Below are positions 23,944-60,243 of a stretch of DNA of 64,000 bases, piece after piece. Both the position numbers and the translations under genes were made by a program. The notes below the pieces were generated by a model. The model did not search any database. It was not told the origin of the DNA and worked only from the letters and a program-made list of their open reading frames with translations. Every line of letters starts with the position of its first letter. Within the stretch, counting starts at the first letter, position 1. This stretch comes from Methanomassiliicoccaceae archaeon (GTDB taxonomy: Archaea > Thermoplasmatota > Thermoplasmata > Methanomassiliicoccales > Methanomethylophilaceae). The DNA lies in assembly GCA_003555025.1 (NCBI GenBank), contig PWHV01000011.1, positions 12,101 through 76,100 on the forward strand, in the 5' to 3' direction.

Positions 23944-25872
23944 ATGGTCAAAGCCCGCTTACTGCTCGTGGACCCCGACCCCTCCTTCTTGGACCGCGCC
24001 GCTTCGGAGCTGTCCGCCCTGGAGGGCGTCGAGGCATCAGCGGCAGCGGACGCAACCGCGGCCTTGGACATCGTTAGAGATGGGAAGATCGATGCGGTGG
24101 TCAGCGGCCACGAGGGCCGCCTTGACGCCCTGTCATTGATGGCCGAGCTGCGCCGCATCGACCCCGAACTCTCATTCATGGTCGTGGCGGACGAAGGGTC
24201 CGAGGATCTGGCCATAGAGGCGCTGGAGAAGGGGGCCGACCATTACTGCTCCAAAAAGAAGGACCCGCTCCCTTCTCTAATGAACAAGGCGGTCCAGATC
24301 GCCGAGCGTTGCCGTCGCTACCGCGATAACGAGCTGGACAGGTACCGCCTGCAGACGCTGGTGGACCTGGCGGAGAAAAGGTCGGCGCCCTTCCACGAGA
24401 TGGCCCATTTCATGCTGGAGAGCATGGTGGAGATAACCGGAAGCAAGATGGGATACATCGCCACGGTCGACACGGATGAGGGGACCTTGAACATGTTCGC
24501 CTGGTCCCAGGGCGGTTTGACCCGATGCCGCATGAAGGACCGCCCCGTCTTCTACCGGTTGGAGGAGACCGGTCTGTGGGGGGAGCCGGTGCGCCAGGGC
24601 AGGTCCGTCATGATAAACGACTACAGCAACGAGACCGAGCTGCAGAAGGGCTCCCCCAAAGGCCACGTGAGCATATCCCGCTACATGGCGATACCCGTCT
24701 ACAACAAAGGAAGGATAGTCGCCACCTGCGGCGTCGCCAACAAGGCCGAGCCTTATGACGACGACGACCTGCGCCAGCTCACAATGATGATGCATGGCAT
24801 GGAGCACCTCTACGACATAAACGCCCGGGACGCGGTCCTTTACGAGACGGAGAAGCGTTACGAGGGCATACTCCGCGCCATCCCGGTGGCGGTGGCGGTG
24901 CTCGATGCCGACGGCAGGCTGATGGACGCCAACGACCTCTTCATCAACATCGATGGTGGCCACCTGCACCGGGACGATAACATCCTCCATAAGAACGAAG
25001 GGGTGATCGCCGAGATACGCCGGCTGTTCGAGGAGTGCCGCAGGAAAGGGAGGAAGGTCAAGGACCAGATAAGCCATAGGTACTCGGTCGACCGGGATGC
25101 CCACTGGCGATGCTATGTCTCCCCCAGGTGGGACCAGAGCTACCGTTTCAATGGAGCGGTGCTGGTCATGGAGGACGCCACCGAGGAGACGGAGGCGATG
25201 AACGCCCTGGAGCAGAGCGCCAACCGCATCAAGACCATAGACCAGATCACCCGGCACGACGTGACCAACCATCTCCAGGTCCTCCATGGGTACCTGGAGA
25301 TGCTGAAGGACATGGTCGTCAGCGACAACAAGGTCGATATACTGTCCCGCATGGAGCGCAGCCTGATGTCCGTCGAGGACCACATGGATTTCGCCCGCAC
25401 CTATCAATCGCTGGGCGTGCAGAGGCCGCAGTGGCTGCTGCTGCGGCGCGAGGCGGAGTCCGCGCTCCGGCACGGCACACCTCTCGACGTGGACATAAAC
25501 CTGGACGGCCATGAGGTATGGGCGGACCCCTCTTTCAACCGCGCCCTCTACAACCTCGTGGAGAACACCATCAGGCACTCCGGCCATGCCCGCAGGGTGT
25601 GGCTTCACAGCCATATCGACGAGGACGGCTCGCTCATCATAGTCTATGAGGACGATGGGGCGGGCATCCCCGCCGGGAAGAAGGAATCCATCTTCCGCAA
25701 GGGCGTTGGTGCCAACACCGGACTGGGAATGTTCCTCGTCAAGGAGATACTGCGGCTCACCGGCATGGACATCCAGGAATGTGGAAGGGAGGGAGTGGGC
25801 GTCCGTTTCGAGATAAAGGTGCCCTCTGAGGCCCACCGCTCCGCGCAGGGGGATCGGGCCGGTCCAGCATGA
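23944..25872 (+). CDS. REC(pseudo-receiver)-GAF-PAS sensor histidine kinase
   Basis: N-terminal CheY-like fold, a GAF domain (IATVDTDEGTLNMFAWSQ...GVANK), a PAS domain, an H-box ITRHDVTNHLQVLHGYLEML, an N-box NLVENTIRH, G1 DDGAGIP and G2 GLGMFLV. Confidence 0.85.
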   Translation: MVKARLLLVDPDPSFLDRAASELSALEGVEASAAADATAALDIVRDGKIDAVVSGHEGRLDALSLMAELRRIDPELSFMVVADEGSEDLAIEALEKGADHYCSKKKDPLPSLMNKAVQIAERCRRYRDNELDRYRLQTLVDLAEKRSAPFHEMAHFMLESMVEITGSKMGYIATVDTDEGTLNMFAWSQGGLTRCRMKDRPVFYRLEETGLWGEPVRQGRSVMINDYSNETELQKGSPKGHVSISRYMAIPVYNKGRIVATCGVANKAEPYDDDDLRQLTMMMHGMEHLYDINARDAVLYETEKRYEGILRAIPVAVAVLDADGRLMDANDLFINIDGGHLHRDDNILHKNEGVIAEIRRLFEECRRKGRKVKDQISHRYSVDRDAHWRCYVSPRWDQSYRFNGAVLVMEDATEETEAMNALEQSANRIKTIDQITRHDVTNHLQVLHGYLEMLKDMVVSDNKVDILSRMERSLMSVEDHMDFARTYQSLGVQRPQWLLLRREAESALRHGTPLDVDINLDGHEVWADPSFNRALYNLVENTIRHSGHARRVWLHSHIDEDGSLIIVYEDDGAGIPAGKKESIFRKGVGANTGLGMFLVKEILRLTGMDIQECGREGVGVRFEIKVPSEAHRSAQGDRAGPA

Positions 25873-25903: not shown

Positions 25904-27823
25904 ATGTACAGGGCGCTTCTCGTTGAGAAGGACCAGGCCTTCATGGAAAAGGCCGTTACCTTTCTCACCAGGATCAACCGCGACCTCAGGGTGATTCCGT
26001 GCCCGGAACCCGACGATATGCCTGAGCTCATAGACAAATACCATCCTGACATCGTGGTCTCCGGCCACGACCCCACCGCGGGGATGGACGGCTTCACCCT
26101 CTTCAAATCGTTGCTGCGCCGAAGCGACAACTTCCCCTTCATAATCATGGTCTCCAACGGCTCCCAGGAGCTGGCGGTGGAAGCCATGAACCTGGGCATC
26201 GACTTCTACCTCATCAAGGACCGTCCCCCTCGGGAGCTCTTCAACGACCTGACCGACAAGATAATCCTGGCGGTGGAGAAGAGGCGCATAGACGAGGAGC
26301 GGTCCCTAAGCGAGCGGCGCCTCAAGGCCCTGGTGAGGCTGGCGAAGATGCACAGCTACGGGTTCTCGGAGGTGGCGCACTTCGTCCTCGAGGAGATGGT
26401 GAAATTGACGCGCAGCGAGATGGGTTATTTCGCCCTCTATGACGAGAAGCGCGACCTGCTCACCATGTACTCATGGTCACAGGCGGGCATGAAACAGTGC
26501 CGCGTGGAGGATAAGCCCATAGAGTACCCCATGGAGACGGTGGGCATATGGGGTGAGCCGGTGCGGCAGAAGCGGGCCATAATCGTGAACGACTACTCCG
26601 CTCCCAGCCCCCTCATAAAGGGCATACCCAAGGGGCACGTGGCTCTGGACAGGCTGCTGATGGTGCCTCTGATGCACAACGGCAAAGTAATCGGCACCGC
26701 CGGGGTCGCCAACAAGGCCCAGCCTTACGACGGCTCCGACATCAACCAGATGGCCCTGCTGATGGACGGCATGGCCAGCATATACATGGGCCGCATGTCG
26801 GGAGAGGCGCGGTACGAGACCGAGAGACGCTACGAGGACATGCTACACTTCGCCCCGGTGGGCATAATGGTGGTGGACAACCAAGGGCTGATAGTGGAGT
26901 GCAACCTAAAGGCGAGGAACCTCCTCGACCAACTCTCTGACGAGGGCCACATCGGCAAGTCGCTCATCGATTACAAGGATGATTTCACCGTGCAGCTGTA
27001 CTCGGCGGTTATGGAGTCGTTGCGCTCGCGCAGCCCCAGCAGCGCCAAGATCAGATTCAAGACGCCGCAGACCAACATCTCCATCCAGGTGTCCATACAG
27101 CCCCGCATGAATGGCCAGGACCCCAAGGGGGCGATAATAACCCTGGAGGACATGAGCGAGATCGAGACCTCGCTGGAGAAGCTGGAGAGGGCCTCCTTCC
27201 AGCTGAACGTGGTGGACCGAATGACATTCTTGGAGGTCTCCAACCAGCTGCAGATAATCAACGGCTACGTCAACTTCGTCAGTTCCATGAGCGACGACGA
27301 GGTCCTGGAAGAGCACATGGAACGCATACTTGACGCATCCGGCCGCATACAGGAGAGGATGCGCTTCTCCCGCGACTTCCGCAACGTGGGAATAATGAAC
27401 TCCGAGTGGCAGAGCGTCACCGATGCCGTGGCGCAGGCATCGCTGGCGGCCGATGTCCCGGAGGGGATGCTGCAGATCAACACCGGGAACCTGGAGGTCC
27501 TCGCCGACCCACAGCTCCCCAAGGTCTTCGAGAACCTCATGGCGATGAGCCTGCAAGAAGAAGGCGTGACCGCCATCAAGGTGGGGTTCAACATAATCGA
27601 TGGCCGCATGCGTATCGTCTACCAGGACGACGGCAAGGGCGTGGCCGAGGAGCACAAGGACCAGGTCTTCGATGCCAGCGCCTCGTGGGCGGCGAACGGA
27701 ATGTATCTGGTCAAGGAGGTGCTCTCCGTGTCCAAGATCACCGTGATGGAGAATGGCGTCCCCGGCGAGGGCACCCGCTTCGAGTTGATAGTCCCCAACA
27801 ACAGCTACCGGCTGCGCTCCTGA
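25904..27823 (+). CDS. REC(pseudo-receiver)-GAF-PAS kinase-like protein (paralog, apparently degenerate catalytic motifs)
   Basis: Same architecture as the upstream gene and alignable throughout. The H-box position reads MTFLEVSNQLQIINGYVNFV (no His). The N-box reads ENLMAMS. G1 DDGKGVA is retained. Confidence 0.8.
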   Translation: MYRALLVEKDQAFMEKAVTFLTRINRDLRVIPCPEPDDMPELIDKYHPDIVVSGHDPTAGMDGFTLFKSLLRRSDNFPFIIMVSNGSQELAVEAMNLGIDFYLIKDRPPRELFNDLTDKIILAVEKRRIDEERSLSERRLKALVRLAKMHSYGFSEVAHFVLEEMVKLTRSEMGYFALYDEKRDLLTMYSWSQAGMKQCRVEDKPIEYPMETVGIWGEPVRQKRAIIVNDYSAPSPLIKGIPKGHVALDRLLMVPLMHNGKVIGTAGVANKAQPYDGSDINQMALLMDGMASIYMGRMSGEARYETERRYEDMLHFAPVGIMVVDNQGLIVECNLKARNLLDQLSDEGHIGKSLIDYKDDFTVQLYSAVMESLRSRSPSSAKIRFKTPQTNISIQVSIQPRMNGQDPKGAIITLEDMSEIETSLEKLERASFQLNVVDRMTFLEVSNQLQIINGYVNFVSSMSDDEVLEEHMERILDASGRIQERMRFSRDFRNVGIMNSEWQSVTDAVAQASLAADVPEGMLQINTGNLEVLADPQLPKVFENLMAMSLQEEGVTAIKVGFNIIDGRMRIVYQDDGKGVAEEHKDQVFDASASWAANGMYLVKEVLSVSKITVMENGVPGEGTRFELIVPNNSYRLRS

Positions 27824-28440
27824 CCGCCGTTATCCCTCGCCATCCGTTTGACCTTCTCCAACGCCTCGGCCAGCAGCCCATAGCCGCCCACGGTCTCCTC
27901 GTGGCTGAGGTCCATCTCGGCGGCGAACTGCTGGGATCGTTGCCGCAGGGACTCCACATCCCCCACGCCCGTGTCGATGAACAGGCAGCGGGAGTAGCTT
28001 TCGAACATCATCCGCAGCAGGTCCATGGGGTCCACGCCCTCCACGGTGTCCAGGTGCAGCTCCTTTATCGAGCCCTCGATGCCCAGATTGGTCCAGCCTG
28101 GAGAGTTGTACCAGGTGCCGGCGCATCTGCGCCGCTCCTCGGCGTACCCGGACGGGGTGAGGAAGACGCCGATGCAGTCATCGGTGTGCACCATCTCCGC
28201 CGGTATGCTGACGTCCTTGGTCACGCCCATGAGGCTCTGGCAGTAGCAGTATCCCAGCAGCAGGGCGTCGACCTTGCCCTTTAGGGCGTTGGCCCTCTCC
28301 ACCACCTCCGTCCTCATCCGCTCCGGCTCTATATGGAGGCCGAATTCCAGGAATTCCACGTGGACGATGTCCTCGTCCCCCGCGACCAGCGCCTCGACCT
28401 CCTCCTTGAATATGTCGCAGGCGATGACACCCAATTTCAT
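27805..28440 (-). CDS. DUF1638 domain protein
   Basis: MKLGVIACDIFKEEVEAL...LLLGYCYCQSL...CLFIDTG resembles the DUF1638 family. ATG 28440 overlaps the upstream TGA (ATGA). Ends in TAG. Confidence 0.65.
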   Translation of the reverse strand: MKLGVIACDIFKEEVEALVAGDEDIVHVEFLEFGLHIEPERMRTEVVERANALKGKVDALLLGYCYCQSLMGVTKDVSIPAEMVHTDDCIGVFLTPSGYAEERRRCAGTWYNSPGWTNLGIEGSIKELHLDTVEGVDPMDLLRMMFESYSRCLFIDTGVGDVESLRQRSQQFAAEMDLSHEETVGGYGLLAEALEKVKRMARDNGGQERSR

Positions 28441-30452
28441 CGGCACGCCCCTCCGGCGTAGAACTGCCGCGGCTTGCCGACGGCGGTCACCATTATTTGC
28501 TTCTCCAGGAGAACCTCGCCGTCGTACTCCTGCCCGAATCCGAACTTGCGGTCGTGGTTCTCCACCTTGATCTCCACCGAGTCCGCCCCCGCCACCCGGG
28601 CCATGCGGTCGACGTGCTCCGAGCCGATCTTTCGGGCGTACTCCGCCGCCTCGCTCACGGAGTCGAAATCCCTCTTCTCTAGGGTGGAGAACAGGGTACA
28701 GGGCGGGTCCTCGGCGGTCCCCATGCCCGTCTTGGGCTTGATCAGGATGTTCATCTTCTCCACCACGCTGCCGGTTATGGCCCCTACGGCGTTGCCCACC
28801 TCGGCGTGCTCCGGCAGCAGCAGTCCAGTGGAGAAACGCTCCGCGATCATCGGGAAATAGGCCCCGATGGGGGCGCCGATGCCGATTATGGGCTTGTTCA
28901 GGCTCAGCCGGCAGGAGAAGTCCTTGCCCATGGCGCCGGTTATGGACTTGTCCAGAAGGTCGTAGGCCACTGTTCCCTCGCTCTCCTTTCCGGTCTCCTC
29001 GTAGACCAGCTTCCGGAGGAGCTCCATGGAGAGCTTCTCCACCACCATGGTCTTGGCGATGGAGAGGAAGTCCTCGCTGGACACGCCCATGCGCTTGGCC
29101 TGCTGCTCGAGGGCGATGCGCGAGGCCTCGGCGCAGTACTCGACGTAGGACCCCTCGACATGGAGCAGGTCAGTGGGCGTCAGCCCCATGCGGGTTATGA
29201 TGCCCATCTCCTCCATCTTCTTCACGTTGAAGGAGAACTGGTGTATGCCCAATGCCTCTTTGGCCTCCAAGAGGGAGTGCGGGCCCTCTTGGAGGAGGCG
29301 TAGGAACACCTTGTCGTTTTCGGACAGGGACCCGTCCCCGTCGTCCTTGAGCAGCACGAAGAATTCCACGTCCTGTATGACGTTGTCGATGTCCATGCTC
29401 TCCGGCGTGAAACGGGAGGCTCTGGCCGCGGCCTTCTTGAGCCTCTCCGTCACGTCGGGGCGCTGAGAGGCGCCGATGCACAGCGGTATCACCCGCAACG
29501 GTGTTAGCATGAGCTTGTTGCCGTTGACCACGAAGCGGCTATCGCCCCCGATGCCGGAGGTGGATATGTCCGCCGCCAGCACCCTGGTGCGGCGACCTCC
29601 GATCAGGGCGCCCTCCGGGTCCAGGCGCGGATGGCCGTTGCGGAGTATGCCGATGTCGGTGGTGGTCCCTCCCATGTCCACAACGATCGCTTCCTCCTCG
29701 CCGGTGAGCATCTTCGCCCCGGTGAGGCTGGAGGCGGGGCCGGAGAGTATGGTCTCCACCGGCCTCTGCAGCGCCACCCCCTCGTCCATCATCGAGCCGT
29801 CGCCCTTGACGATCATCATGGGCGCCTCGATGCCCAGCTCGCCGAGGACCTTCCTGACCGAATCCATGAGGTCGGCGATGATGGGTATCAGGCGGGCGTT
29901 CATCACCGTGGTGAGGGTCCTCTCGTTGAATCCCAGGCTCGACGATAGCTCATGCCCGCAGACCACCGGCTTCGAGCATACATCCTTGACCATCCTCTTG
30001 ATGCGGTCCTCGTGCTCGGGGTTGCGGACGCTGAGGAAAGAGGACACGGCGAAAGCGTCCACCGCGCCAGCGTACTGACGGATGAATCTCTCCGCCGCCT
30101 CCTCGTCCAAGGGCTCCGCCTCCTCCCCTGATAGCATGTGGCCGCCGGAGACCCTGCCGATCACGTCCACCGGTATTGACCGGTCGTAGTCCCTGCCCAC
30201 CACCAGCAGGGCGACGCGACAGCCTTTGCCCTCCACGATGGAGTTGGTCGCCAAGGTGGAGGAGACTGAAACCAGCTCCACCTCGGACAAACGACCGCTC
30301 CCCATATGGGATATGGCCTTGGAGATGCCGATGGAGAGGTCGTCCCTGGTGGTGAGTGACTTGGCCTTGCCGAGAACCTCCAGGCATCCGAAGTCGTACA
30401 ACGCCGCGTCGGTGTAGGTGCCACCCGTGTCTATTCCCAGGCCCAGGGCCAT
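28437..30452 (-). CDS. hydantoinase A / oxoprolinase-family ASKHA ATPase
   Basis: MALGLGIDTGGTYTDAAL is the phosphate-1 motif, and VVDMGGTTTDIG is the second ASKHA motif. 671 aa. A strong AGGAGGTGA RBS is present. No HyuB-like partner lies nearby. Confidence 0.8.
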   Translation of the reverse strand: MALGLGIDTGGTYTDAALYDFGCLEVLGKAKSLTTRDDLSIGISKAISHMGSGRLSEVELVSVSSTLATNSIVEGKGCRVALLVVGRDYDRSIPVDVIGRVSGGHMLSGEEAEPLDEEAAERFIRQYAGAVDAFAVSSFLSVRNPEHEDRIKRMVKDVCSKPVVCGHELSSSLGFNERTLTTVMNARLIPIIADLMDSVRKVLGELGIEAPMMIVKGDGSMMDEGVALQRPVETILSGPASSLTGAKMLTGEEEAIVVDMGGTTTDIGILRNGHPRLDPEGALIGGRRTRVLAADISTSGIGGDSRFVVNGNKLMLTPLRVIPLCIGASQRPDVTERLKKAAARASRFTPESMDIDNVIQDVEFFVLLKDDGDGSLSENDKVFLRLLQEGPHSLLEAKEALGIHQFSFNVKKMEEMGIITRMGLTPTDLLHVEGSYVEYCAEASRIALEQQAKRMGVSSEDFLSIAKTMVVEKLSMELLRKLVYEETGKESEGTVAYDLLDKSITGAMGKDFSCRLSLNKPIIGIGAPIGAYFPMIAERFSTGLLLPEHAEVGNAVGAITGSVVEKMNILIKPKTGMGTAEDPPCTLFSTLEKRDFDSVSEAAEYARKIGSEHVDRMARVAGADSVEIKVENHDRKFGFGQEYDGEVLLEKQIMVTAVGKPRQFYAGGACR

Positions 30453-30456
30453 GCAA

Positions 30457-30777
30457 TCACCTCCTGCCGCTCCATCCCATGTCCTTGTTGTACTTGTTAA
30501 CGACCTGCGATATATGGTCGGCCATCAGCCTCTCGTGGTTCTTCCCGAACACCTCGGGCGTGTCCCGGATGTAGAACTCGGCGTCGCACTTGGCGCAGCG
30601 CACCTTCGGACAATCCCTCATCGCCTCTGAACAGCCTTGGCAGGCTATGGTGCGCGCGTACATCATCGAGAACTCGAAGCCGCAGAACGGGCACTCGAAC
30701 TTCCGCAAGGACCTCACCGTCTGCGGCGAGAAGCCCTTGCTCCTCATGGCATCATAGTATCCTTTACTACCTAGCAT
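30457..30777 (-). CDS. Cys-rich small protein (zinc-ribbon or metal-binding)
   Basis: FECPFCGFEF...IACQGCSEAMRDCPKVRCAKCDAEF contains 8 Cys including three CxxC. ATG 30777 is preceded by GAGGTG. The track GTG at 30786 is an alternative start. Confidence 0.55.
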   Translation of the reverse strand: MLGSKGYYDAMRSKGFSPQTVRSLRKFECPFCGFEFSMMYARTIACQGCSEAMRDCPKVRCAKCDAEFYIRDTPEVFGKNHERLMADHISQVVNKYNKDMGWSGRR

Positions 30778-30787
30778 CAACAACACC

Positions 30788-31258
30788 TCAGTGATGGTCT
30801 ATCCCCTTCTCCACCTCATAATGATCATCTACTATCTCGAAGTCCATGTCGTAATCGGCGAAGACCTCGTCCAGTATGGAGCGGGTGAGGTCCCTGACCA
30901 CATCGTCCCATATCCCGTGGACGATGACGTGCATGGTGAATTCGAACTCCCTCAACGATTCCACCGGCAGCGAGTCCTTGAACGCCGCCTTCTCTTGGGC
31001 GGCATCGACGATGCTCCCCATGATGTTGCCCTCCGAGCTCCACACGAAGGACTTCACATGGCCGACGATGTCCGCGCCGTTCTCCATGCATATTTGGACG
31101 GAACGCTTCATAATGTGGTCGACGAACCTCAGTATCTCTTCCTTGCTCACTCCGCTCTCGGACCGGACCTTTATCACTATGGCGTACTTCCCCAGCTCAT
31201 CGACCGCCCGGTGCAGGTCGAGATGCAGGTCGTCGTGGTCGTCTCCAGACATGGTCAT
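30788..31258 (-). CDS. acidic, His-rich-termini hypothetical protein
   Basis: 156-aa ORF, MTMSGDDHDDLHLDLH...DDHYEVEKGIDHH. The start overlaps the CobW-like stop (ATGA). No family recognised. Confidence 0.55.
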   Translation of the reverse strand: MTMSGDDHDDLHLDLHRAVDELGKYAIVIKVRSESGVSKEEILRFVDHIMKRSVQICMENGADIVGHVKSFVWSSEGNIMGSIVDAAQEKAAFKDSLPVESLREFEFTMHVIVHGIWDDVVRDLTRSILDEVFADYDMDFEIVDDHYEVEKGIDHH

Positions 31259-31926
31259 TCCCTCTTGGCGTACTGCTTGCGGAGCAGCTCCTCCTCCACC
31301 GCATCGTCGTAGCGCGGCGATATCCTGTCGACTATCGTGTCGTAAACCAGATCAAGCCCCTCCCCGGTCACGGATGAAAGGTGGGCGATCTCCGCCCGCG
31401 GGTTGATGCTGGCTATGAACTCCTCGGTCTTGGCCACGGCCTCGGGCGAAGCGGCATCGACCTTGTTCACGAAGCAGACGTCGCTCTCGCGTATCTGGGT
31501 CTCGACCAGTCGGCGCACGGCCTTCAGCAGCATGTCGATGCGCGTGGCATCGACCAATGTTATGACGGGCGCATGCTCGATGATCATCTCCGCCTTGGCC
31601 TCGGAGTACTCGGCGGCCCTTTTCAGGCCCCAAGGTATGGCAACCCCGGAAGGCTCGACGATGACTATCTGGGGGTCGAAGACCTCGTGGAGCTTGACCA
31701 GCGTCTCGGCGAAAGAGCCGGCTATCTGGCAACAGATGCAGCCGCCGGCTATCTCCCGGGCCTCGAGCCCGTTGGCCTCCACGAACTTGGAGTCGATGCT
31801 GATCTCACCCACGTCGTTGACCACTATGGCTATGCGGCAGCCTTTGTTGACCAGCCCCTCCGCTATCTTCATGAGGGCGGTTGTCTTCCCGCTGCCGAGG
31901 AATCCTGCAATCTGCGAGACCTTCAT
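31255..31926 (-). CDS. CobW/HypB/UreG-family (G3E) P-loop GTPase
   Basis: GFLGSGKTT Walker A, the GGCICCQ (GCxCC) metal-binding motif, and NKVD G4. ATG 31926 (MKVSQIAGF). Confidence 0.85.
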   Translation of the reverse strand: MKVSQIAGFLGSGKTTALMKIAEGLVNKGCRIAIVVNDVGEISIDSKFVEANGLEAREIAGGCICCQIAGSFAETLVKLHEVFDPQIVIVEPSGVAIPWGLKRAAEYSEAKAEMIIEHAPVITLVDATRIDMLLKAVRRLVETQIRESDVCFVNKVDAASPEAVAKTEEFIASINPRAEIAHLSSVTGEGLDLVYDTIVDRISPRYDDAVEEELLRKQYAKRE

Positions 31927-31999
31927 TTTTATCACATTCTACGGTAAAGTGTTTGGGAAAGGGTTTGCCGCATAAAGTCGGTTGTGGAAGTTTCCCCGG

Positions 32000-33109
32000 T
32001 CAGCAATCGACCTTGCCGTTCTCCTTGGTCACGTCGACCACGGCCTTGATGTTCTCCATCTTGGTGGCGATGTCAGGCGGCACCTCGCAACCGCTGGATA
32101 TGCAGTAGCGGGAATTCAACCCCCTCTTGCAAAGGGAGGTCTTGACCTCTTGGCAGAGATCCTCCGTCACCTTGGAGATCTTCTCCGGGGTGGCGCGGAT
32201 GAACATCTGCGGGTCAATGTTCCCCGCCAGCAGGCAGTTGTCCGCATAGCCCTGGTCGATGACCTCGCCCGCGGTGGGCGACCCGGGGATCAGGGGGTAG
32301 TAGGCCATGCTGAAGATCACTGGCTTGAACTCCGTCACCTGGGTGTCCATATGGGGGAGGTCGGAGCAGTTGTGCACGCAGAAAGCCATGCCGCTGTCCG
32401 TGGTGAGCTTGTTCAGCATGCCAGCGTACTTGCTCTGCCCCTCGAACTCGTGGTACTCCGAATCACCGAGGCAGGAGTAGTTCGCCCACAGATAGTCCCA
32501 GACCAGGCCGTTGCAGCCCGTCTCGCCGAAGGCCTCGACCATCTGCCTGTCGAACTCCACCATAGTCTCCATGCCCTTGTGGACCACCGATGGGTCGGTG
32601 AACATGTCCATGAAGACCCTCTCAGCTCCAGCGGTCTGTGTCAAGGCCAGCAGCGGACCCTCCAGGAAACCGGCGGTGATTACCTCGCCCGCCAATTTCT
32701 CGGAGAAGATCTTGGTCCCCTCGACTAGGACGTTGGTTCTCCCCTTCTTGATGTCTGGGACCTCTAACTTCTCATAGTCCTCGGGGCTGTGGATGATGTG
32801 CTTGTCCACGAACGGGGTGTTCTCATCATCCATGCGGACGTTGGCTCCGAGGTCGCCAGCCAAGACGGAGAGGTCCATCAGGCCGATGGCGAAGTCGAAG
32901 TCGAAGTACTTGTGCCCAGCGATGAAACTCTCGGCGAAGAGCTTGGGATCCCGGCACCATTCGGCATAGGTGACGCCGTTGCCGCCGTTCAGCAGCTTGC
33001 GGTTGATGCCGCACGCTATTGGATAGGCGGGCAGGCGGTCGACCTCTTCATTCCCGAGCGCGGCCATTCCCCTCTCGAGATGGTTCAAAACAAGGCCTCC
33101 TTCAGCCAT
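32000..33109 (-). CDS. URO-D superfamily MT2-type methyltransferase (methylcobamide:CoM methyltransferase-like, MtaA/MtbA/MtsA family)
   Basis: 369 aa. VHNC (the HxC Zn ligands of MtaA-type enzymes) plus a distal SSGCEV Cys. N-terminus LERGMAALGNEEVDRLP is typical of the family. Confidence 0.8.
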   Translation of the reverse strand: MAEGGLVLNHLERGMAALGNEEVDRLPAYPIACGINRKLLNGGNGVTYAEWCRDPKLFAESFIAGHKYFDFDFAIGLMDLSVLAGDLGANVRMDDENTPFVDKHIIHSPEDYEKLEVPDIKKGRTNVLVEGTKIFSEKLAGEVITAGFLEGPLLALTQTAGAERVFMDMFTDPSVVHKGMETMVEFDRQMVEAFGETGCNGLVWDYLWANYSCLGDSEYHEFEGQSKYAGMLNKLTTDSGMAFCVHNCSDLPHMDTQVTEFKPVIFSMAYYPLIPGSPTAGEVIDQGYADNCLLAGNIDPQMFIRATPEKISKVTEDLCQEVKTSLCKRGLNSRYCISSGCEVPPDIATKMENIKAVVDVTKENGKVDC

Positions 33110-33726
33110 GCCACGGAGTCCTGGGCGTTCGCGTCGCGGTGGTCGGCGCCGATCTCCTCGGCGAAGTCCGGCGATGTCGGCGGGCCGCCGATGACCACTT
33201 TGGCCTTGGAGCGGTAGCCGCTCTCCACCAGCCCGTCGATGACGTCCTTCATGCCGTCCATTGTGGGCGTCATCAAGGTGCTCATGGCCACCACGTTGGT
33301 CTTGATGCTCTCCGCGGTGTCAATGAACGTGGTTATGGGCACGTCCTTGCCGAGGTCCTTGACCTCAAGGCCGCCGGCGGTCATCATGGTCTTGACGATG
33401 TTCTTGCCGATGTCGTGCACATCACCCTCGACAACGCCGATGACCACCTTCTTCTTGTCCGCAAGATCCTCGGTGGGGATCATGGGGAGAAGCATGTCCA
33501 GTCCAGCGTACATGGTGTTCGCCGACATCAATACTTGGGGAAGGTACACCTCGCGGGCGGCGTACCTGTCGCCAACGACCGACATCCCCTTCACGAGGCC
33601 ATCATTGATGGCGTCGAGGGGGCTGACCTTCTCGTCAATGGCCCTCTGGGCGTATGACTTGGCCTGGTCAGGCTTCCCTAGGACCACTCCCTCGCTCAAT
33701 CCGTTCAATATCTCATCTTTGCTCAT
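33085..33726 (-). CDS. corrinoid (cobalamin-binding) methyltransferase protein, MtaC/MtbC/MtsB family
   Basis: N-terminal B12-binding-2 helical cap followed by a Rossmann B12 domain with the DxHxxG motif (GDVHDIGKN). Confidence 0.9.
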   Translation of the reverse strand: MSKDEILNGLSEGVVLGKPDQAKSYAQRAIDEKVSPLDAINDGLVKGMSVVGDRYAAREVYLPQVLMSANTMYAGLDMLLPMIPTEDLADKKKVVIGVVEGDVHDIGKNIVKTMMTAGGLEVKDLGKDVPITTFIDTAESIKTNVVAMSTLMTPTMDGMKDVIDGLVESGYRSKAKVVIGGPPTSPDFAEEIGADHRDANAQDSVAWLKEALF

Positions 33727-34157
33727 TGGGTTCCTCCTCGGACGGAATGTTCGCCGTCTCGTGAAGAAAATCCGCTATATCTTTATTAAATAATACAGTA
33801 TGGATGGATGATAGAACCATGTTGAACAGGTATACATACAATCAAAATAGTTTTTCCTTTTAAATACTGAACGAGTGATAACAGTTATTTACAACAGAGA
33901 TGGTAGATGATAGGCCTATAAACGAAAAACGCATATATACATCATATAAATAATTTATCTTAGGCGCAAACAATAGTTAACATGACCCTCCCGACTATAA
34001 GCCGTTAATAACAAAACACTTGGTAAACATATATATAAAATAAATATAATATTATCAGAACTCCCCTATTATTAATACCCTCATGCAGAATCCTCTGTCC
34101 GGTGAGGGTGCGGCCAAAGGAGCGACCATCGACCGCAACACGGGAAAAGGTGAGCAA
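33727..34157. other. AT-rich intergenic island with divergent promoters
   Basis: Strikingly A/T-dominated sequence in a GC-rich genome. It contains several TATA-like runs (tttaataaagatata on the minus strand near 33775-33795; atatataaaataaatataatatt near 34030-34055). No credible ORF is present. Confidence 0.7.
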
Positions 34158-34457
34158 ATGGACCTTGAACAGTTCGAGATAGACCTGAACGCCAGGTGCG
34201 TCTGCGGATGCATGGAGGGCGGCAGGTTCCACAAGATCTACCGCTTCGACAACGGCTACGGGGCGTCAGTTGTCGGCAATCCTCGCATGGAGGGCTTCGA
34301 CTCCGACGGCTACCAGGTGATGTTCCTAAAATTCACGGGTGACGAGTACAGCGTGGAGGAGCCTCCCGGCATGGGATCGAAGACAGTGAACGTGGGTTCA
34401 TGGGAGGATGCCCTGCGGCTCCTTATGCGCCTCTCCGAGCTGGACGAACAAACATGA
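34158..34457 (+). CDS. hypothetical protein
   Basis: 99-aa ORF, MDLEQFEIDLNARCVCGC..., with a GGAAAAGGTGAG RBS. The upstream track codons lie in the AT-rich/G-rich leader. No family recognised. Confidence 0.5.
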   Translation: MDLEQFEIDLNARCVCGCMEGGRFHKIYRFDNGYGASVVGNPRMEGFDSDGYQVMFLKFTGDEYSVEEPPGMGSKTVNVGSWEDALRLLMRLSELDEQT

Positions 34458-34484
34458 AATAACCGTCTGCGCCATTAATGGTCG

Positions 34485-35543
34485 ATGGCGGAGAGGCACG
34501 ACGTCCTGGTGGTGGGGGCCGGCCCCGCCGGTCTCTCGGCGACCCTTTTCCTCAGGCTGTCGGGGCGGGATCTGGACGTGCTCGCCCTCGACCGCCTCCA
34601 GGGAGAGCGCAGGTCGAGATACCATCGGATATGCGGTGGAGGCGTCAGCCGCCGGGCCTTCCGGGGTCTGGACCCCATCGAGCCATGGGGCGCCATGGAG
34701 GAGATATCGCGCGCTCTGCTGCGCTGGCCCGGCGGTGTGGAGACTGAACAGACGATCGACGGCCATATCATCGACCGCCCCCGTTTCCTCGATGAGCTAG
34801 CCGTCCGCTGTCGCGAGGAGGGCGCTATGTTGGAGAGGGGGTCGGTGGTCTCCGTGGTTCCGGACGGTGACGGCTATCGCGCCCGTCTCTACGACGGCAG
34901 CGAGCTCCGCGCCCGCCACATAATCGGCGCTGACGGGGCCCTCTCCGTGGTGCGGCGCGACCTCTTCGGCACCCGGCCTTGGCGGATCATGGCCGCGGAG
35001 AGGTATCTGGTGGAGGGAGACGCGGAGCCGGGCACCCTCGTTTTCCATATGGAGCAGCGCTACCGCGGCGGGTATCGCTGGGAGTTCCCCTGCGGCGGAC
35101 TGGTAAACACCGGTTTCCCCCGAGGGACGGACAGCGTTGAGGAGTACCTGGACCGTGGATGCCGTCACATCCCCTTCGGCGGTGTGGGGCCGGTGGTAGA
35201 AGGCGATGCCCTCCTCGTCGGCGACGCCGCCGCCCAGGCCAACCCTGTCAGCTACGGGGGCATAAGGGCGGCGCTGCAGGCGGGCCGCCAGGCGGCTTCC
35301 GCGGTGGCCGCCGGAAAGCCGGACCTTTACCGGAGATGGTGGGAGAGGTCGCGACTCTCCTCGCCGTGGTACCTAAAGGCCCATGAGGCCATGTCCTCAT
35401 GGAGCGATGAGGACATGCGGGCCGCCGCCGCGCCCTTCCAAGGGAGGTCCAGGGCGCTGCCCCTCCTGCGCCGCCTCATCGAGGCGCCGCGGGATTACCA
35501 TATGTACGTGGCCTACGGCATGGCCCTCCGCGACAGCTGGTGA
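34485..35543 (+). CDS. FAD-dependent oxidoreductase, geranylgeranyl-reductase-like
   Basis: HDVLVVGAGPAGLSA dinucleotide fold and LVGDAAAQANPVSYGGI (GD motif), about 350 aa. Confidence 0.75.
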   Translation: MAERHDVLVVGAGPAGLSATLFLRLSGRDLDVLALDRLQGERRSRYHRICGGGVSRRAFRGLDPIEPWGAMEEISRALLRWPGGVETEQTIDGHIIDRPRFLDELAVRCREEGAMLERGSVVSVVPDGDGYRARLYDGSELRARHIIGADGALSVVRRDLFGTRPWRIMAAERYLVEGDAEPGTLVFHMEQRYRGGYRWEFPCGGLVNTGFPRGTDSVEEYLDRGCRHIPFGGVGPVVEGDALLVGDAAAQANPVSYGGIRAALQAGRQAASAVAAGKPDLYRRWWERSRLSSPWYLKAHEAMSSWSDEDMRAAAAPFQGRSRALPLLRRLIEAPRDYHMYVAYGMALRDSW

Positions 35544-55597: not shown

Positions 55598-58597
55598 TTG
55601 ACAAAATCGGCATTAGTTATCGGCGGAGGGATTGCAGGCATCCAAGCATCGTTGGATCTTGCGGACCGTGACATCCACGTCTACCTGGTGGAGAAGGAAC
55701 CCACCATAGGAGGCAGGATGAGCCGGCTCGACAAGACGTTCCCGACGAACGACTGTTCCGCCTGTATTCTTTCGCCCAAGATGGCTGACTGTTTCGGTCA
55801 CCCGAACATAGACGTATTGAGCTATTCTGAGGTCAAGAACGTCGACGGTCAGCCCGGGGACTTCAAGGTGAAGGTCGTCAAGAAGGCCAGGTATGTGGAC
55901 GAGGAGAAGTGCACCGGTTGCGGCGACTGTCTCCAGAAGTGCCCTCAGAAGAACATACCCGACCAGTTCGAGTACGGACTGACGACCAGGAGAGCGATCT
56001 ACATTCCCCATGCGCAGGCCGTGCCGCGTGTGGCCCTCATCGACCCCGAGCACTGCAAGAAGTTCTTGGAGGACAAGTGCGGCGTGTGCAAAAAGGTCTG
56101 CACCCGCGGCGCCGTGGACTACGAGATGAAGGACGAGGAGATGGCCCTAGACGTCGGGTCAATCATCTGCGCCACCGGGTACCAGACCTGGGACGCCAGC
56201 ATCTCCACGGAGTACGGCTACGGGCGCTTCGCCAACGTGGTGAGCGCCATGGAGTTCGAGAGGATGATGTGCGCATCCGGCCCTGACCATGGGCACCTGA
56301 GGATGCCCTCGTCCGGAGAGGACCCCAAGAAGATAGCGTTCATCCAGTGCTGCGGGTCACGCAGCGAGAAAGAGGGATGGAAGAAGTACTGCTCGTCGGT
56401 GTGCTGCATGTACGCCACCAAGCAGGCCATGATCACCAAGGAGCACGCCGACGTTGATGAGGACATATTCTTCATGGACATCCGCTCCTACGGCAAGGAG
56501 TTCGAGGACTACATACACCGCGCCGAGGGAGAGTACGGCATCAATCTGCACAGGAACGCCCGCGTCGCTTCGGTGGAGGAGGACCCTGAGACCAAGAAGC
56601 TCACCCTCCGCTACGCCGATTCCGAGGGTAGCCCTCAGGCCACGGAGTACGACCTCGTCGTGCTGTCGGTGGGCATGAATCCCCAGTCCGACGCCGAGGA
56701 TTTCGCCAAGACGCTGGGCATCGAGCTCAACGAGCACGGTTACTGCAAGACCGATATATTCAACCCCCTGGAGACGAGCAGGGAGGGTGTGTTCGTGACC
56801 GGGGCCCTCGCGGCACCCAAGGACATACCCACCTCCGTCGCCGAGGCCTGCGGATCGTCAGCCAAGGCCGGCTCGTTCATAGTGGACGAGAACTTCAAGC
56901 CTTGCGAGCCCAAGGAGTACCCCCCTGAGCGCGATGTCTCCGAAGAGGAGCCCCGCGTGGGCGTTTGGGTCTGTGAGTGCGGCATCAACATCGGTGCCAC
57001 CGTTAACGTCCCCACCGTCGCCGAGTACGCCGCCGAGCTGCCGGGAGTGGTGCACTCCAGCAATAGCATGTACGCTTGTGCCCAGGACTGCCTGGAGGAC
57101 ATAACAGCCACTATCAAGGAGAAGGAGCTGAACCGCGTGGTCGTCGCCTCGTGCACACCGAGGACCCACGAGCCGCTGTTCCGCAACGCTTGCCGTGAGG
57201 GAGGTCTTAACCAGTACCTCTTCAACATGGCGAACATCCGCGACCAGTGCTCTTGGATACACATGCACGAGCCGGAGAAGGCCACCACCAAGGCCAAGGA
57301 CCTGGTGCGCATGGCCATCGCCAAGTCGCTGCTGCTGGAGCCGTTGCAGGGCTCGAAGCTGCCTGTCACCAACTCCGCCGCCGTCATCGGCTGCGGCGTG
57401 ACCGGCATGACCGCCGCCCTCGACCTTGCCGCCCAGGGCTTCGAGGTGCACATCATCGAGAAGACCGACAGCATGGGAGGCAACGCCAAGAACTTCTATC
57501 ACAAGGAGGACGGCAAGGACGTGAGCGAGCATCTCGCCGAGATGATCGCCAAGGTGGAGTCCAACCCGCTGATAAAGGTCCATCTCGGCACCGAGGTCAT
57601 GGACATGCCAGGATACGTGGGCAACTTCACCGTCAAGACCAGCGCCGGAGACCTGGAGGTCGGATCGGTGATACTTGCAGTGGGCGCCAGCCCATACAAG
57701 CCCACCGAGTACGGCTACGGCAAGGATGAAAAGGTCGCCACCGCGCTGGAGGTGGAGAAGATGGTCCACGACGGCTCCTTCAACGCCAAGGACGTGGCGT
57801 TCATCCAGTGCGTCGGGTCCAGGAACGACGAGGTCAAGTACTGCTCCCGCGTGTGCTGCACCACCGCCCTGCGGAATGCCATCGCCATCAAGGAGGCCGA
57901 CCCATCCGCCAACGTCAGCGTGTTCCACAAGGACATCAGGACCTACGGCTACCGCGAGGAGCTGTACCGCCGCGCCTCCGAGCTAGGCGTGATGTTCCTG
58001 CGCTTCCCTGAGGGCAAGATGCCGGAGTACGACGGCTCCAGCGTCAAGGCCTATGACACCATCCTCAACATGGACGTGTCGGTGCCCGTGGACTGCCTGG
58101 TGCTAAGCGCCGGCATATCCCCTGACCAGGAGGAGAAGGAGGAGCTCGCCAAGATGCTCAAGATACCCATCAGCAAGGACGGGTTCTACTTCGAGGCGCA
58201 CCAGAAGCTGCGGCCGGTCGACTTCGCCACCGAGGGCGTCTTCGTCGCCGGACTTGCGCACTGGCCCAAGCACATCGACGAATGCGTCGCCCAGGCATCC
58301 GGAGCCGCCTCCAGGGCGCTCACCGTGATATCCAAGGAGGAGATCATCTCCGAGGGCATAATCGCCAGCGTCAACGACGACCTGTGCGACGGATGCGGCG
58401 TCTGCGAAGGCTGCTGCCCGTACAGCGCCATCGAGATCGTCGACGTGGGCGACGGGAAGCTCCGCAGCCAGGTCAACGACGCTCTCTGCAAGGGATGCGG
58501 CAGCTGCGTCGCCGCCTGCCCCTCCGCGGCCATGGAGCAGAAAGGCTTCAAGAACGTCCAGATACAGGCGGAGATCGATGCCGCCCTGGAGGAGTGA
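55598..58597 (+). CDS. hdrA: heterodisulfide reductase subunit A-like flavoprotein, enlarged two-module form (999 aa)
   Basis: Module 1: ALVIGGGIAGIQASLDLA...GGRMSRLDKTFPTNDCSACIL plus an inserted 2x4Fe-4S ferredoxin (CTGCGDCLQKCP, CGVCKKVC). Module 2: the canonical HdrA N-domain (VWVCECGINIG...ASCTPRTHEPLF...ANIRDQCSWIH), a second GCGVTGMTAALDLA fold, and a C-terminal ferredoxin (CDGCGVCEGCCP, CKGCGSCVAACP). TTG start after GGAGG. Confidence 0.88.
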   Translation: MTKSALVIGGGIAGIQASLDLADRDIHVYLVEKEPTIGGRMSRLDKTFPTNDCSACILSPKMADCFGHPNIDVLSYSEVKNVDGQPGDFKVKVVKKARYVDEEKCTGCGDCLQKCPQKNIPDQFEYGLTTRRAIYIPHAQAVPRVALIDPEHCKKFLEDKCGVCKKVCTRGAVDYEMKDEEMALDVGSIICATGYQTWDASISTEYGYGRFANVVSAMEFERMMCASGPDHGHLRMPSSGEDPKKIAFIQCCGSRSEKEGWKKYCSSVCCMYATKQAMITKEHADVDEDIFFMDIRSYGKEFEDYIHRAEGEYGINLHRNARVASVEEDPETKKLTLRYADSEGSPQATEYDLVVLSVGMNPQSDAEDFAKTLGIELNEHGYCKTDIFNPLETSREGVFVTGALAAPKDIPTSVAEACGSSAKAGSFIVDENFKPCEPKEYPPERDVSEEEPRVGVWVCECGINIGATVNVPTVAEYAAELPGVVHSSNSMYACAQDCLEDITATIKEKELNRVVVASCTPRTHEPLFRNACREGGLNQYLFNMANIRDQCSWIHMHEPEKATTKAKDLVRMAIAKSLLLEPLQGSKLPVTNSAAVIGCGVTGMTAALDLAAQGFEVHIIEKTDSMGGNAKNFYHKEDGKDVSEHLAEMIAKVESNPLIKVHLGTEVMDMPGYVGNFTVKTSAGDLEVGSVILAVGASPYKPTEYGYGKDEKVATALEVEKMVHDGSFNAKDVAFIQCVGSRNDEVKYCSRVCCTTALRNAIAIKEADPSANVSVFHKDIRTYGYREELYRRASELGVMFLRFPEGKMPEYDGSSVKAYDTILNMDVSVPVDCLVLSAGISPDQEEKEELAKMLKIPISKDGFYFEAHQKLRPVDFATEGVFVAGLAHWPKHIDECVAQASGAASRALTVISKEEIISEGIIASVNDDLCDGCGVCEGCCPYSAIEIVDVGDGKLRSQVNDALCKGCGSCVAACPSAAMEQKGFKNVQIQAEIDAALEE

Positions 58598-58602
58598 TAC
58601 AA

Positions 58603-59022
58603 ATGAGCGAAGAGTTCGATCCGAAAGTGATAGCCTTCTGCTGCAACTGGTGTTCGTACGCCGGCGCCGACGGCGCCGGTGTGGCCAGGCTGCAGATGCC
58701 TACCAACTTCCGCATCATCCGCACGATGTGCTCCGCGAGGGTAGACCCCGAGCACATCCTCAGCGCACTTGCCAAGGGCGCTGACGGCGTGATCGTGCTG
58801 GGATGCCACCCCGCGGACTGCCACTATATCGGCGGCAACTACCGGGCCCGAAGGAGGATGGCCCTTCTCCGCTTCGTGCTGGAGGAGTACGGCTTCGACC
58901 CCAAGAGGCTGAGGCTGGAATGGGTCTCCGCTTCCGAGGGGGATAAGTTCCAGACCACCATGAGCGAGTTCATAGACGATATCAAGGGCCTCGGCCCCAA
59001 CCCGCTGAAGGAGGTGGCCTGA
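58603..59022 (+). CDS. mvhD: F420-non-reducing hydrogenase subunit MvhD
   Basis: KVIAFCCNWCSYAGADGAG...VIVLGCHPADCHY is typical MvhD/FlpD, 139 aa. Confidence 0.92.
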   Translation: MSEEFDPKVIAFCCNWCSYAGADGAGVARLQMPTNFRIIRTMCSARVDPEHILSALAKGADGVIVLGCHPADCHYIGGNYRARRRMALLRFVLEEYGFDPKRLRLEWVSASEGDKFQTTMSEFIDDIKGLGPNPLKEVA

Positions 59023-60242: not shown

Positions 60243-60243
60243 A

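Follow-up and report, generated by a model that had tools for sequence, protein, structure and literature searches.

Methylotrophic methanogenesis in guts, rumen, and wetlands is driven by corrinoid methyltransferases, as is the demethylation of osmolytes by bacteria. To our knowledge, the supply of the cofactor to corrinoid proteins and the upkeep of these proteins beyond the RamA step are largely uncharted. The described systems closest to the locus considered here are the Mts-type methyltransferases, in which a corrinoid protein with a cap and a DxHxxG Rossmann domain is combined with a zinc-dependent methyltransferase of the URO-D/MtaA fold, with no separate substrate-specific methyltransferase (MT1). 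MtsA catalyzes both half-reactions (Tallant et al. 2001, as cited in PMC4153887), and a corrinoid/URO-D pair of Methanomassiliicoccales has been annotated as mtsAB since 2013 (PMC3814188, PMC4153887, PMC5011839, PMC10673518). We analyzed a pair of this type, together with five genes that accompany it, at 27805-33726 of a 64-kb stretch of contig PWHV01000011.1 from a Methanomassiliicoccaceae archaeon (the whole stretch, hereafter the window). In our judgment, it is fairly probable that this seven-gene locus joins an MtsB/MtsA-type methyl-transfer pair to a tool kit that matures or maintains the corrinoid protein.

The corrinoid protein, its methyltransferase, and a small Cys/His protein

All seven genes, which we named g1 to g7, lie on the minus strand. 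An original prediction made from the letters of the sequence had described them as a corrinoid methyltransferase cluster with an unusual accessory set. We found an open reading frame (ORF) for each gene at the predicted position, the family assignments agreed with Pfam and NCBIfam, and the literature that we searched held no description of such an accessory set. Comparisons with other genomes drew on a survey anchored on g6, covering 80 genome loci plus metagenome contexts (L numbers denote these loci), with synteny counted by tblastn.

g1 (33085..33726) encodes an MtsB-like cognate corrinoid protein composed of a B12-binding_2 cap (PF02607, 9e-21) and a B12-binding Rossmann domain (PF02310, 1e-23), and it matched the NCBIfam model for methyltransferase cognate corrinoid proteins at 9.5e-59. 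The DxHxxG base-off/His-on loop is present as DVHDIG at amino acid (aa) 102. The reading frame of g1 shares 4 nt with that of g2 (32000..33088), which encodes an MtsA-like zinc-dependent methyltransferase of the URO-D family (PF01208, 6.5e-45). A profile of the g2 family aligned over its full length with the solved MtaA structure 4ay7 (1-357, E 9e-71), with the HxC (HnC/HiC) and GC zinc ligands in register. The HNC motif is present in g2, and the predicted zinc ligands H239, C241, and C334 are invariant in the relatives that we aligned.

The NCBIfam MtaA and MtbA models scored g2 far below their cutoffs. In a comparison limited to sequences from L020 and L069, g2 shared 36% identity with the methyltransferase domain of the fused Methanosarcina proteins and 21-22% identity with MtaA/MtbA-like proteins. 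The fused proteins in L069 are 634-646 aa long and consist of B12-binding_2, B12-binding, and URO-D domains, which is the MtsD/F/H architecture; the order of g1 and g2, corrinoid protein and then methyltransferase, matches the order of domains in these fusions. As judged by these comparisons, g1 and g2 appear to form an MtsB/MtsA-type pair of a corrinoid protein and a zinc-dependent URO-D methyltransferase. Unlike the Mts-type fusions, g1 and g2 are separate proteins, the additional protein g5 is present, g2 carries a Cys-containing insertion, and the operon itself includes the accessory genes.

The original prediction had pointed out that the operon lacks a recognizable MT1 gene. We likewise detected no MtaB, MtmB, MtbB, or MttB gene in the window, but because g1 and g2 appear to be of the mtsAB type and MtsA performs both half-reactions, no separate MT1 would be expected, so the absence is no anomaly. 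The predicted lack of a RamA-type activase in the operon held for the window as a whole, which contains no RamA or RACo gene. Searches of the window by tblastn with RACo, MttB, pterin-binding methyltransferase (MT2), CobN, ChlD, ChlI, RamA, MtbB, and MtbA-like sequences returned no match, nor did we find a second copy of any of the seven proteins by tblastn of the window.

Relative to MtaA, the g2 proteins of Methanomassiliicoccales contain this insertion at g2 residues ~305-330, where it contributes two to three extra conserved Cys residues (LCQEVKTALCKRGLNSxYC) immediately ahead of the third zinc ligand. The fused forms of Methanosarcina lack it.

g5 (30457..30786) encodes a small basic protein without a Pfam match. 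It had been predicted to contain eight Cys residues; we count seven, in the pattern CxxC-x13-CxxC-x6-C-x4-CxxC, followed by a His that is the eighth invariant ligand candidate. All seven Cys residues and this His are invariant among 20 homologs. When all loci were translated in six frames and searched with a g5 hidden Markov model (HMM), the protein was recovered in 21 Methanomassiliicoccales loci, after g2 in most of them. The HMM gave no match in L020, the locus of the mtb type, and bacteria yielded a single weak and partial match (L024, E 3e-4). Across all loci, those in which g6 lies with other types of methyltransferase lack g5. These distributions indicate that g5 behaves as a specific partner of g1 and g2 rather than of g6 and is restricted to the Mts-type clusters of Methanomassiliicoccales.

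The accessory ATPase, DUF1638 protein, and CobW-type GTPase

g6 (28437..30452) encodes a HyuA-like ATPase of the ASKHA class with the architecture of hydantoinase A and the acetone carboxylase beta subunit. Pfam matches to Hydant_A_N and Hydantoinase_A cover aa 1-316 alone, leaving the C-terminal half without a match. An AlphaFold2 (AF2) model of g6, with a predicted local distance difference test (pLDDT) score of 84, was matched by Foldseek over its full length to HyuA-type subunits of NMHase, acetone/acetophenone carboxylase (beta), and caprolactamase (alpha) with template modeling (TM) scores of 0.53-0.60. The nucleotide-site motifs DTGGTYTD and D259-G-G-T..D266 are conserved across 78 members of the g6 family. 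Thus, g6 shares its fold, Pfam domains, and phosphate-binding motifs with the HyuA subunits of hydantoinase, 5-oxoprolinase, caprolactamase, and acetone/acetophenone carboxylases. Unlike them, it is only 15-19% identical to these subunits, occurs near corrinoid proteins instead of genes for lactam or ketone catabolism, and lacks a HyuB partner: no Hydantoinase_B gene was found in any examined locus, either in Pfam-annotated contexts or among recurrent neighbors.

Comparison with the RamA/RACo (RACE) activases gave a similarly mixed picture. Like these proteins, g6 is an ASKHA-class nucleotide-binding protein encoded beside corrinoid genes and probably has a role in keeping a corrinoid protein active, and RACo (4c1n) appeared at rank 45 of its Foldseek list. 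Unlike them, g6 has the HyuA architecture, has no RACo_middle, RACo_C_ter, or Fe-S domain by Pfam, and co-occurs with genuine RamA/RACE proteins, which in L020, L066, and L088 do have these domains. An Fe-S site in g6 formed by conserved Cys residues was considered and rejected, as none of the Cys residues is conserved family-wide in the 78 members. g6 also showed weak matches to MutL/GlmL (PF13941, 1e-8, residues 6-65; NCBIfam GlmL, 9e-8, 31 bits against a cutoff of 475). GlmL/MutL, EutA, and DdrA are reactivases or chaperones of adenosylcobalamin enzymes that, like g6, are ASKHA ATPases encoded beside B12 proteins. In contrast to a member of that group, g6 matches over approximately its first 60 residues alone and far below the NCBIfam cutoff, and it would serve a corrinoid protein of methyl transfer instead of a radical mutase or lyase. 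We draw only a functional analogy to GlmL, EutA, and DdrA and claim no membership.

The gene neighborhoods of g6 relatives extend well beyond the Mts type. Full-length bacterial homologs, 35-42% identical, are present in Sporomusa, Desulfosporosinus, Chloroflexota, Clostridia, Desulfobacterales, and Oceanospirillaceae. Their neighbors include the MttB family, corrinoid proteins, pterin-binding MT2, BCCT/OpuAC transporters, DUF1638, RACE, and genes resembling the MetH activation domain; DUF1638 lies beside g6 relatives in five bacterial MttB-type loci, and a RACE gene lies within ~5.5 kb of the g6 homolog in five bacterial loci. Within the fetched loci (up to 10 kb on each side), a corrinoid marker was present in at least 46 of the 83 g6-family loci, a count that is a lower bound since greedy ORF calling lost real genes on GC-rich loci. 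Two corrinoid genes accompany two g6 paralogs in L012, L017, L029, and L085.

Among archaea, a g6 homolog lies between two fused Mts-type genes of Methanosarcina (L069), with RamA 7 kb away. In Methermicoccus shengliensis (L088, 6171-10781), genes for a HyuA-like ATPase (593 aa), a CobW-type GTPase (358 aa, described below), and RamA (563 aa) form a co-directional row with gaps of 12-48 nt and no adjacent methyltransferase gene. A metagenome-assembled genome (MAG) closely related to the window, the same MAG that contributed L004, carries at L020 (1558-12041) a canonical dimethylamine locus with the series mtbC, mtbB with an in-frame amber stop (pyrrolysine), hydA, an MtbA-like URO-D gene, and the gene for DUF1638, convergent on ramA-pylD-pylC. 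The g6 and g7 paralogs in this locus are 46% and 63% identical, respectively, to those of the window. As judged from this company in archaea and bacteria, g6 and g7 appear to be general companions of corrinoid methyltransferase operons. The original prediction had viewed the locus as self-contained, with reactivation handled by uncharacterized components. This view is contradicted by our findings: because g6 and g7 paralogs occur with RamA in L020 and g6 homologs occur with RACE in the five bacterial loci and with RamA in Methermicoccus, g1 to g7 are probably not self-contained.

We found no functional study of a g6-type gene with corrinoid methyltransferases in the literature searched, where such genes are merely mentioned in the cluster of strain DCMF and near mtsF in M. 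acetivorans. In strain DCMF, a HyuA-type protein encoded in a methyltransferase cluster was among the most abundant proteins induced by glycine betaine (PMC9768040). As a separate observation, small DGC-domain proteins (PF08859) are encoded directly after tandem g6 paralogs in one Methanomassiliicoccus-type lineage (L085, 14695-15428; L012, 12021-12725; L029, 12192-12728).

g7 (27805..28440) follows g6 with a 4-nt overlap and encodes a DUF1638 protein (PF07796, 7.5e-32, 110.9 bits against a cutoff of 27) that had no match among PDB sequences. A Cys3-His-Asp set formed by C8, H36, C67, D88, and C89 is invariant across archaeal and bacterial members. In Phaeobacter, DUF1638 and a RamA-like protein are both genetically required for B12-dependent methionine synthesis (PMC5764234), and in Ruegeria, DUF1638 is induced along with RamA on N-osmolytes (PMC12478193). 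g7 shares with the DUF1638 proteins of these Rhodobacterales split MetH/MtgC systems its Pfam family, the company of corrinoid and RamA-like proteins, and the Cys3-His-Asp set. It differs from them in being archaeal and in lying directly behind a HyuA-like gene.

g3 (31255..31935) encodes the nucleotide-binding domain alone of a CobW-type G3E GTPase (cobW, PF02492, 1.9e-37), with the P-loop GFLGSGKT and a CICC motif; its match spans residues 5-184 of the 318 residues of YjiA, which is only the GTPase domain. The adjacent g4 (30788..31258) encodes, as had been predicted, an acidic, His-rich protein of 156 aa (isoelectric point of 4.65; 10 His residues). The alignment of its homologs shows conserved His residues, a conserved C-terminal HH, and, toward the N terminus, a hypervariable (H/D)n tract. 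We considered whether g4 is a canonical CobW_C domain and rejected this assignment: Pfam gave no match even at E<=1, and hence none to CobW_C (PF07683), no PDB sequence was matched in a profile search, and Foldseek with the AF2 model (pLDDT 89) gave weak matches throughout, with YjiA at rank 25 (TM 0.31).

A g4 profile search of 1.8 billion representatives resolved the relationship between the two proteins. At least 150 library matches at E<=1e-3 define the g4 family, mostly as stand-alone proteins of ~130-150 aa, and the profile also matched the last 110-145 aa of 321-365-aa proteins whose N termini are PF02492 cobW domains by Pfam. The 358-aa "GTP-binding protein" of Methermicoccus shengliensis is such a fused form. 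In addition, wherever either gene was found in a locus whose flanks could be read, g3 and g4 lay side by side. Because the g4 profile matches the C termini of cobW proteins, with the two parts fused in other archaea, g3 and g4 are the halves of one G3E GTPase of the CobW type, whose C-terminal domain has no Pfam model, rather than the two separate components that had been proposed. With g3 and g4 joined, the protein resembles COG0523/CobW/YjiA/ZigA, and by analogy MeaB, in its P-loop, CxCC motif, cobW domain, His-rich segment, and two-domain layout and, in some lineages, in its association with a chelatase of the CobN type. Unlike these proteins, it is split, its g4 part belongs to a family of its own, and it is embedded in a methyltransferase operon. 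We also observed a g4-like domain at residues 168-277 of a 428-aa protein (P0355), midway in a predicted permease of the ArsP_1 family, which hints that the domain may be a portable metal-binding module.

Operon layout, conservation, and flanking genes

From g1 to g7, the junctions measure -4, +64, -4, +1, +4, and -4 nt when g2 starts at TTG 33088 and g7 at ATG 28440. The predicted tight packing with a single 64-nt gap was thus borne out, whereas the predicted 4-nt overlaps hold solely with these probable starts and not with the longest ORFs, which extend to 33109 (g2) and 28446 (g7). The TTG start of g2 is preceded by GGAGG and yields a protein of 362 aa, in line with homologs of 360-369 aa. 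The sole long AT-rich intergenic stretch lies upstream of g1 (33727..34157; 431 bp; 37% GC, compared with 61% in the operon). It probably contains the promoters of the operon and of the divergent gene g0, and its position upstream of g1 alone fits a single transcription unit, from which we infer that g1 to g7 are cotranscribed. An Rfam scan of 27000-35000 found no RNA family or riboswitch in this leader, and the sole match in the scanned region was a subthreshold antisense one at 30661-30745. Repeats in the leader were limited to AT-rich low-complexity matches.

We assessed conservation of the gene families in the 23 Methanomassiliicoccales loci that exceed 12 kb. g1 was present in 20 of the 23, g5 in 19, g2 in 18, g4 in 12, g3 in 11, the small divergent gene g0 in 8, g7 in 7, and a receiver-GAF-PAS-HATPase sensor in 6. 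The exact order from g1 to g7 was found only in the close relatives L004, L005, and L084 (68-88% identical). L007, L011, L013, and L015 also carry all families together, in different orders, and the same is largely true of L021, L080, and L085-L087. The blocks that stay intact are g1-g2(-g5) and g3-g4; g5 and g6 are usually adjacent, and the blocks, including g6(-g7), are reshuffled in other lineages. Conservation of the gene set, which the original prediction had proposed as a check, is therefore found in part: the families co-localize repeatedly, and the neighborhood is conserved across the order Methanomassiliicoccales, whereas the operon order is not.

g0 (34158..34457, plus strand; longest ORF from 34083) encodes a protein of ~100 aa without a Pfam match and with the motif DLNAxCxCGCM..RFHKIYRF.N.YGASVV. 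Homologs (36-71% identical) lie beside the cluster in eight loci (L001, L004-L007, L011, L013, and L015), and L084 has a gene in the equivalent position. In L001, the g0 homolog heads a ChlI-ChlD-CobN operon, and small unannotated genes fill that place in L086 and L087. These class I chelatase operons (L001, 719-7621; L086, 9508-16374; L087, 9573-16493) encode a CobN of 1236 aa, a ChlD-like protein with a VWA domain, and a ChlI-like protein.

On the other side of the operon, two tandem genes on the plus strand (23944-25872 and 25904-27823) encode receiver-GAF-PAS-HATPase_c sensor proteins by Pfam and are convergent on g7, which the second gene overlaps by 19 nt. At least eight loci (L003, L004, L005, L016, L018, L019, L084, and L086) carry a member of the same sensor family downstream of the cluster. 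As conserved neighbors, these tandem sensor proteins are candidate regulators of g1 to g7.

g6 homologs at 56-90% identity were assigned to Methanomassiliicoccales, the order in which we place the uncultured host of the window. Two contigs labeled Bifidobacteriaceae and Methanomicrobiales (L021, CAVABN010000012.1, and L016, CALAVG010000029.1) carry a typical Methanomassiliicoccales cluster at 47-71% identity; these labels probably reflect mis-binning in public MAGs. Elsewhere in the window (55598-61761, plus strand), a 999-aa HdrA-like protein, in which the FAD and Fe-S modules are duplicated, is encoded ahead of an MvhG-like protein (Oxidored_q6) and an MvhA-like [NiFe] hydrogenase large subunit. 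This gene row is compatible with an H2-dependent methyl-reducing methanogen.

Proposed mechanism, competing explanations, and significance

In the mechanism that we infer for the locus, including the class of methyl donor and the biochemical roles of g3 to g7, g2 would transfer a methyl group from a probably thiol-linked donor to the Co(I) form of g1 and then from methyl-Co(III)-g1 to coenzyme M, without a separate MT1. g5 may be a lineage-specific extra subunit or partner of g1 and g2, probably with two zinc sites or an Fe-S site. g3 and g4 together would use GTP to deliver a metal (cobalt or zinc) or a metallated cofactor, with the His-rich C-terminal domain as a pointer to this role. The ATP-using g6 and g7 with its Cys3His site would act on the corrinoid protein by loading, by conformational gating, or by rescue of the oxidized Co(II) form, with g7 contributing a redox or metal role. 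g6 and g7 would work alongside a RamA activase, which the organism must then encode outside the window. A broader proposal, which we hold to be possible but not probable, is that g6, the g3-g4 GTPase, and g7 form a joint, hitherto unrecognized nucleotide-driven machinery found across domains of life that loads, gates, or repairs the corrinoid cofactor together with RamA/RACE, as a methyltransferase counterpart of the MeaB/ATR and DdrA/EutA/GlmL systems of adenosylcobalamin enzymes, with paralogs dedicated to single corrinoid proteins.

Several observations weigh against the combination of a methyl-transfer pair with a maintenance tool kit. M. alvi has mtsAB homologs and formed no methane from dimethylsulfide (PMC10673518), so the "methylthiol" label of g1 and g2 may be wrong. 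g7 is absent from many loci that retain g1, g2, g5, and g6. The relatives of g6 with solved structures are, without exception, subunits that phosphorylate a substrate and work with HyuB, not protein chaperones. In ~40% of the fetched g6-family loci there is no nearby corrinoid gene, which may mean that the family has more than a single role. Finally, in three loci of Methanomethylophilaceae (L001, L086, and L087), the g3-g4 pair abuts and is convergent on the g0-ChlI-ChlD-CobN chelatase operon, which suggests cobalt insertion in cofactor synthesis, not action on a methyltransferase.

These points bear on explanations that differ from ours in what g3 to g7 do. If the module were self-contained after all, g6 with g7, g5, or both might constitute a split, noncanonical reductive activase that replaces RamA. 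The missing RamA/RACo gene in the window, the shared ASKHA fold class of g6 and the RACE proteins, the invariant Cys3His of g7 and the seven Cys and one His of g5, and the genetic tie of DUF1638 to B12 reactivation (PMC5764234) would all suit such an activase. We nevertheless consider it unlikely, since g6 and g7 paralogs share L020 with a canonical RamA in a close relative, RACE accompanies g6 homologs in the five bacterial loci, hydA, cobW, and ramA stand in one row in Methermicoccus, and Phaeobacter needs both its RamA-like protein and DUF1638. The lack of family-wide conserved Cys residues in g6 and the absence of g5 where g6 accompanies other methyltransferase types argue in the same direction. 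Marginally less probable still is that g6 is a small-molecule enzyme, an ATP-dependent activator of the kinase or carboxylase type that would serve to prepare or release the methyl donor, or to recycle a by-product, with the methyltransferase acting after it. Its whole-length fold match to subunits of known enzymes, its intact nucleotide-site motifs, and the family loci without corrinoid genes are as this explanation would have them, whereas the lack of a HyuB-type partner in any examined locus is not. Moreover, the family occurs beside methyltransferases of unrelated donors, namely dimethylamine MtbB in L020, quaternary-amine MttB in bacteria, and the URO-D Mts type in the window, which makes a shared small-molecule substrate unlikely, and the Methermicoccus copy lies beside cobW and ramA with no catalytic methyltransferase.

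CobW is known to supply Co(II) to CobNST, and the convergent arrangement in L001, L086, and L087 together with the His/Asp-rich tracts of g4, typical of metal handling, raises the question of whether g3 and g4 (and g0) instead take part in making cobamides, with a cobalt chaperone that supplies a CobN-type chelatase and has no action on g1, g2, or g5. Their place beside the methyltransferase genes would then reflect no more than a common tie to corrinoid metabolism. We regard this as improbable, and slightly more so than a small-molecule role for g6: the window and its close relatives keep g3 and g4 inside the methyltransferase operon with no chelatase in 64 kb, the Methermicoccus fusion is flanked by hydA and ramA and not by biosynthesis genes, and zinc for g2, and probably for g5, is an equally plausible cargo. 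That functionally unrelated genes were juxtaposed by chance is very improbable and, in practice, refuted by the synteny. The restriction of the exact seven-gene order to close relatives could be read in this way, but the same families recur in different orders in L007, L011, L013, L015, L021, L080, and L085-L087 and co-localize across domains of life.

The reading that we favor, an MtsB/MtsA-type pair with a maturation or maintenance tool kit, would have consequences at two levels. Within Methanomassiliicoccales, the widespread "mtsAB" comes with a dedicated Cys-rich subunit, g5, that may help to find the real methyl donor. Beyond this order, the locus yields three conserved candidate factors, the HyuA-like ATPase, the split CobW GTPase, and DUF1638, which together point to a layer of care for corrinoid proteins that has yet to be described and that archaea and bacteria have in common.

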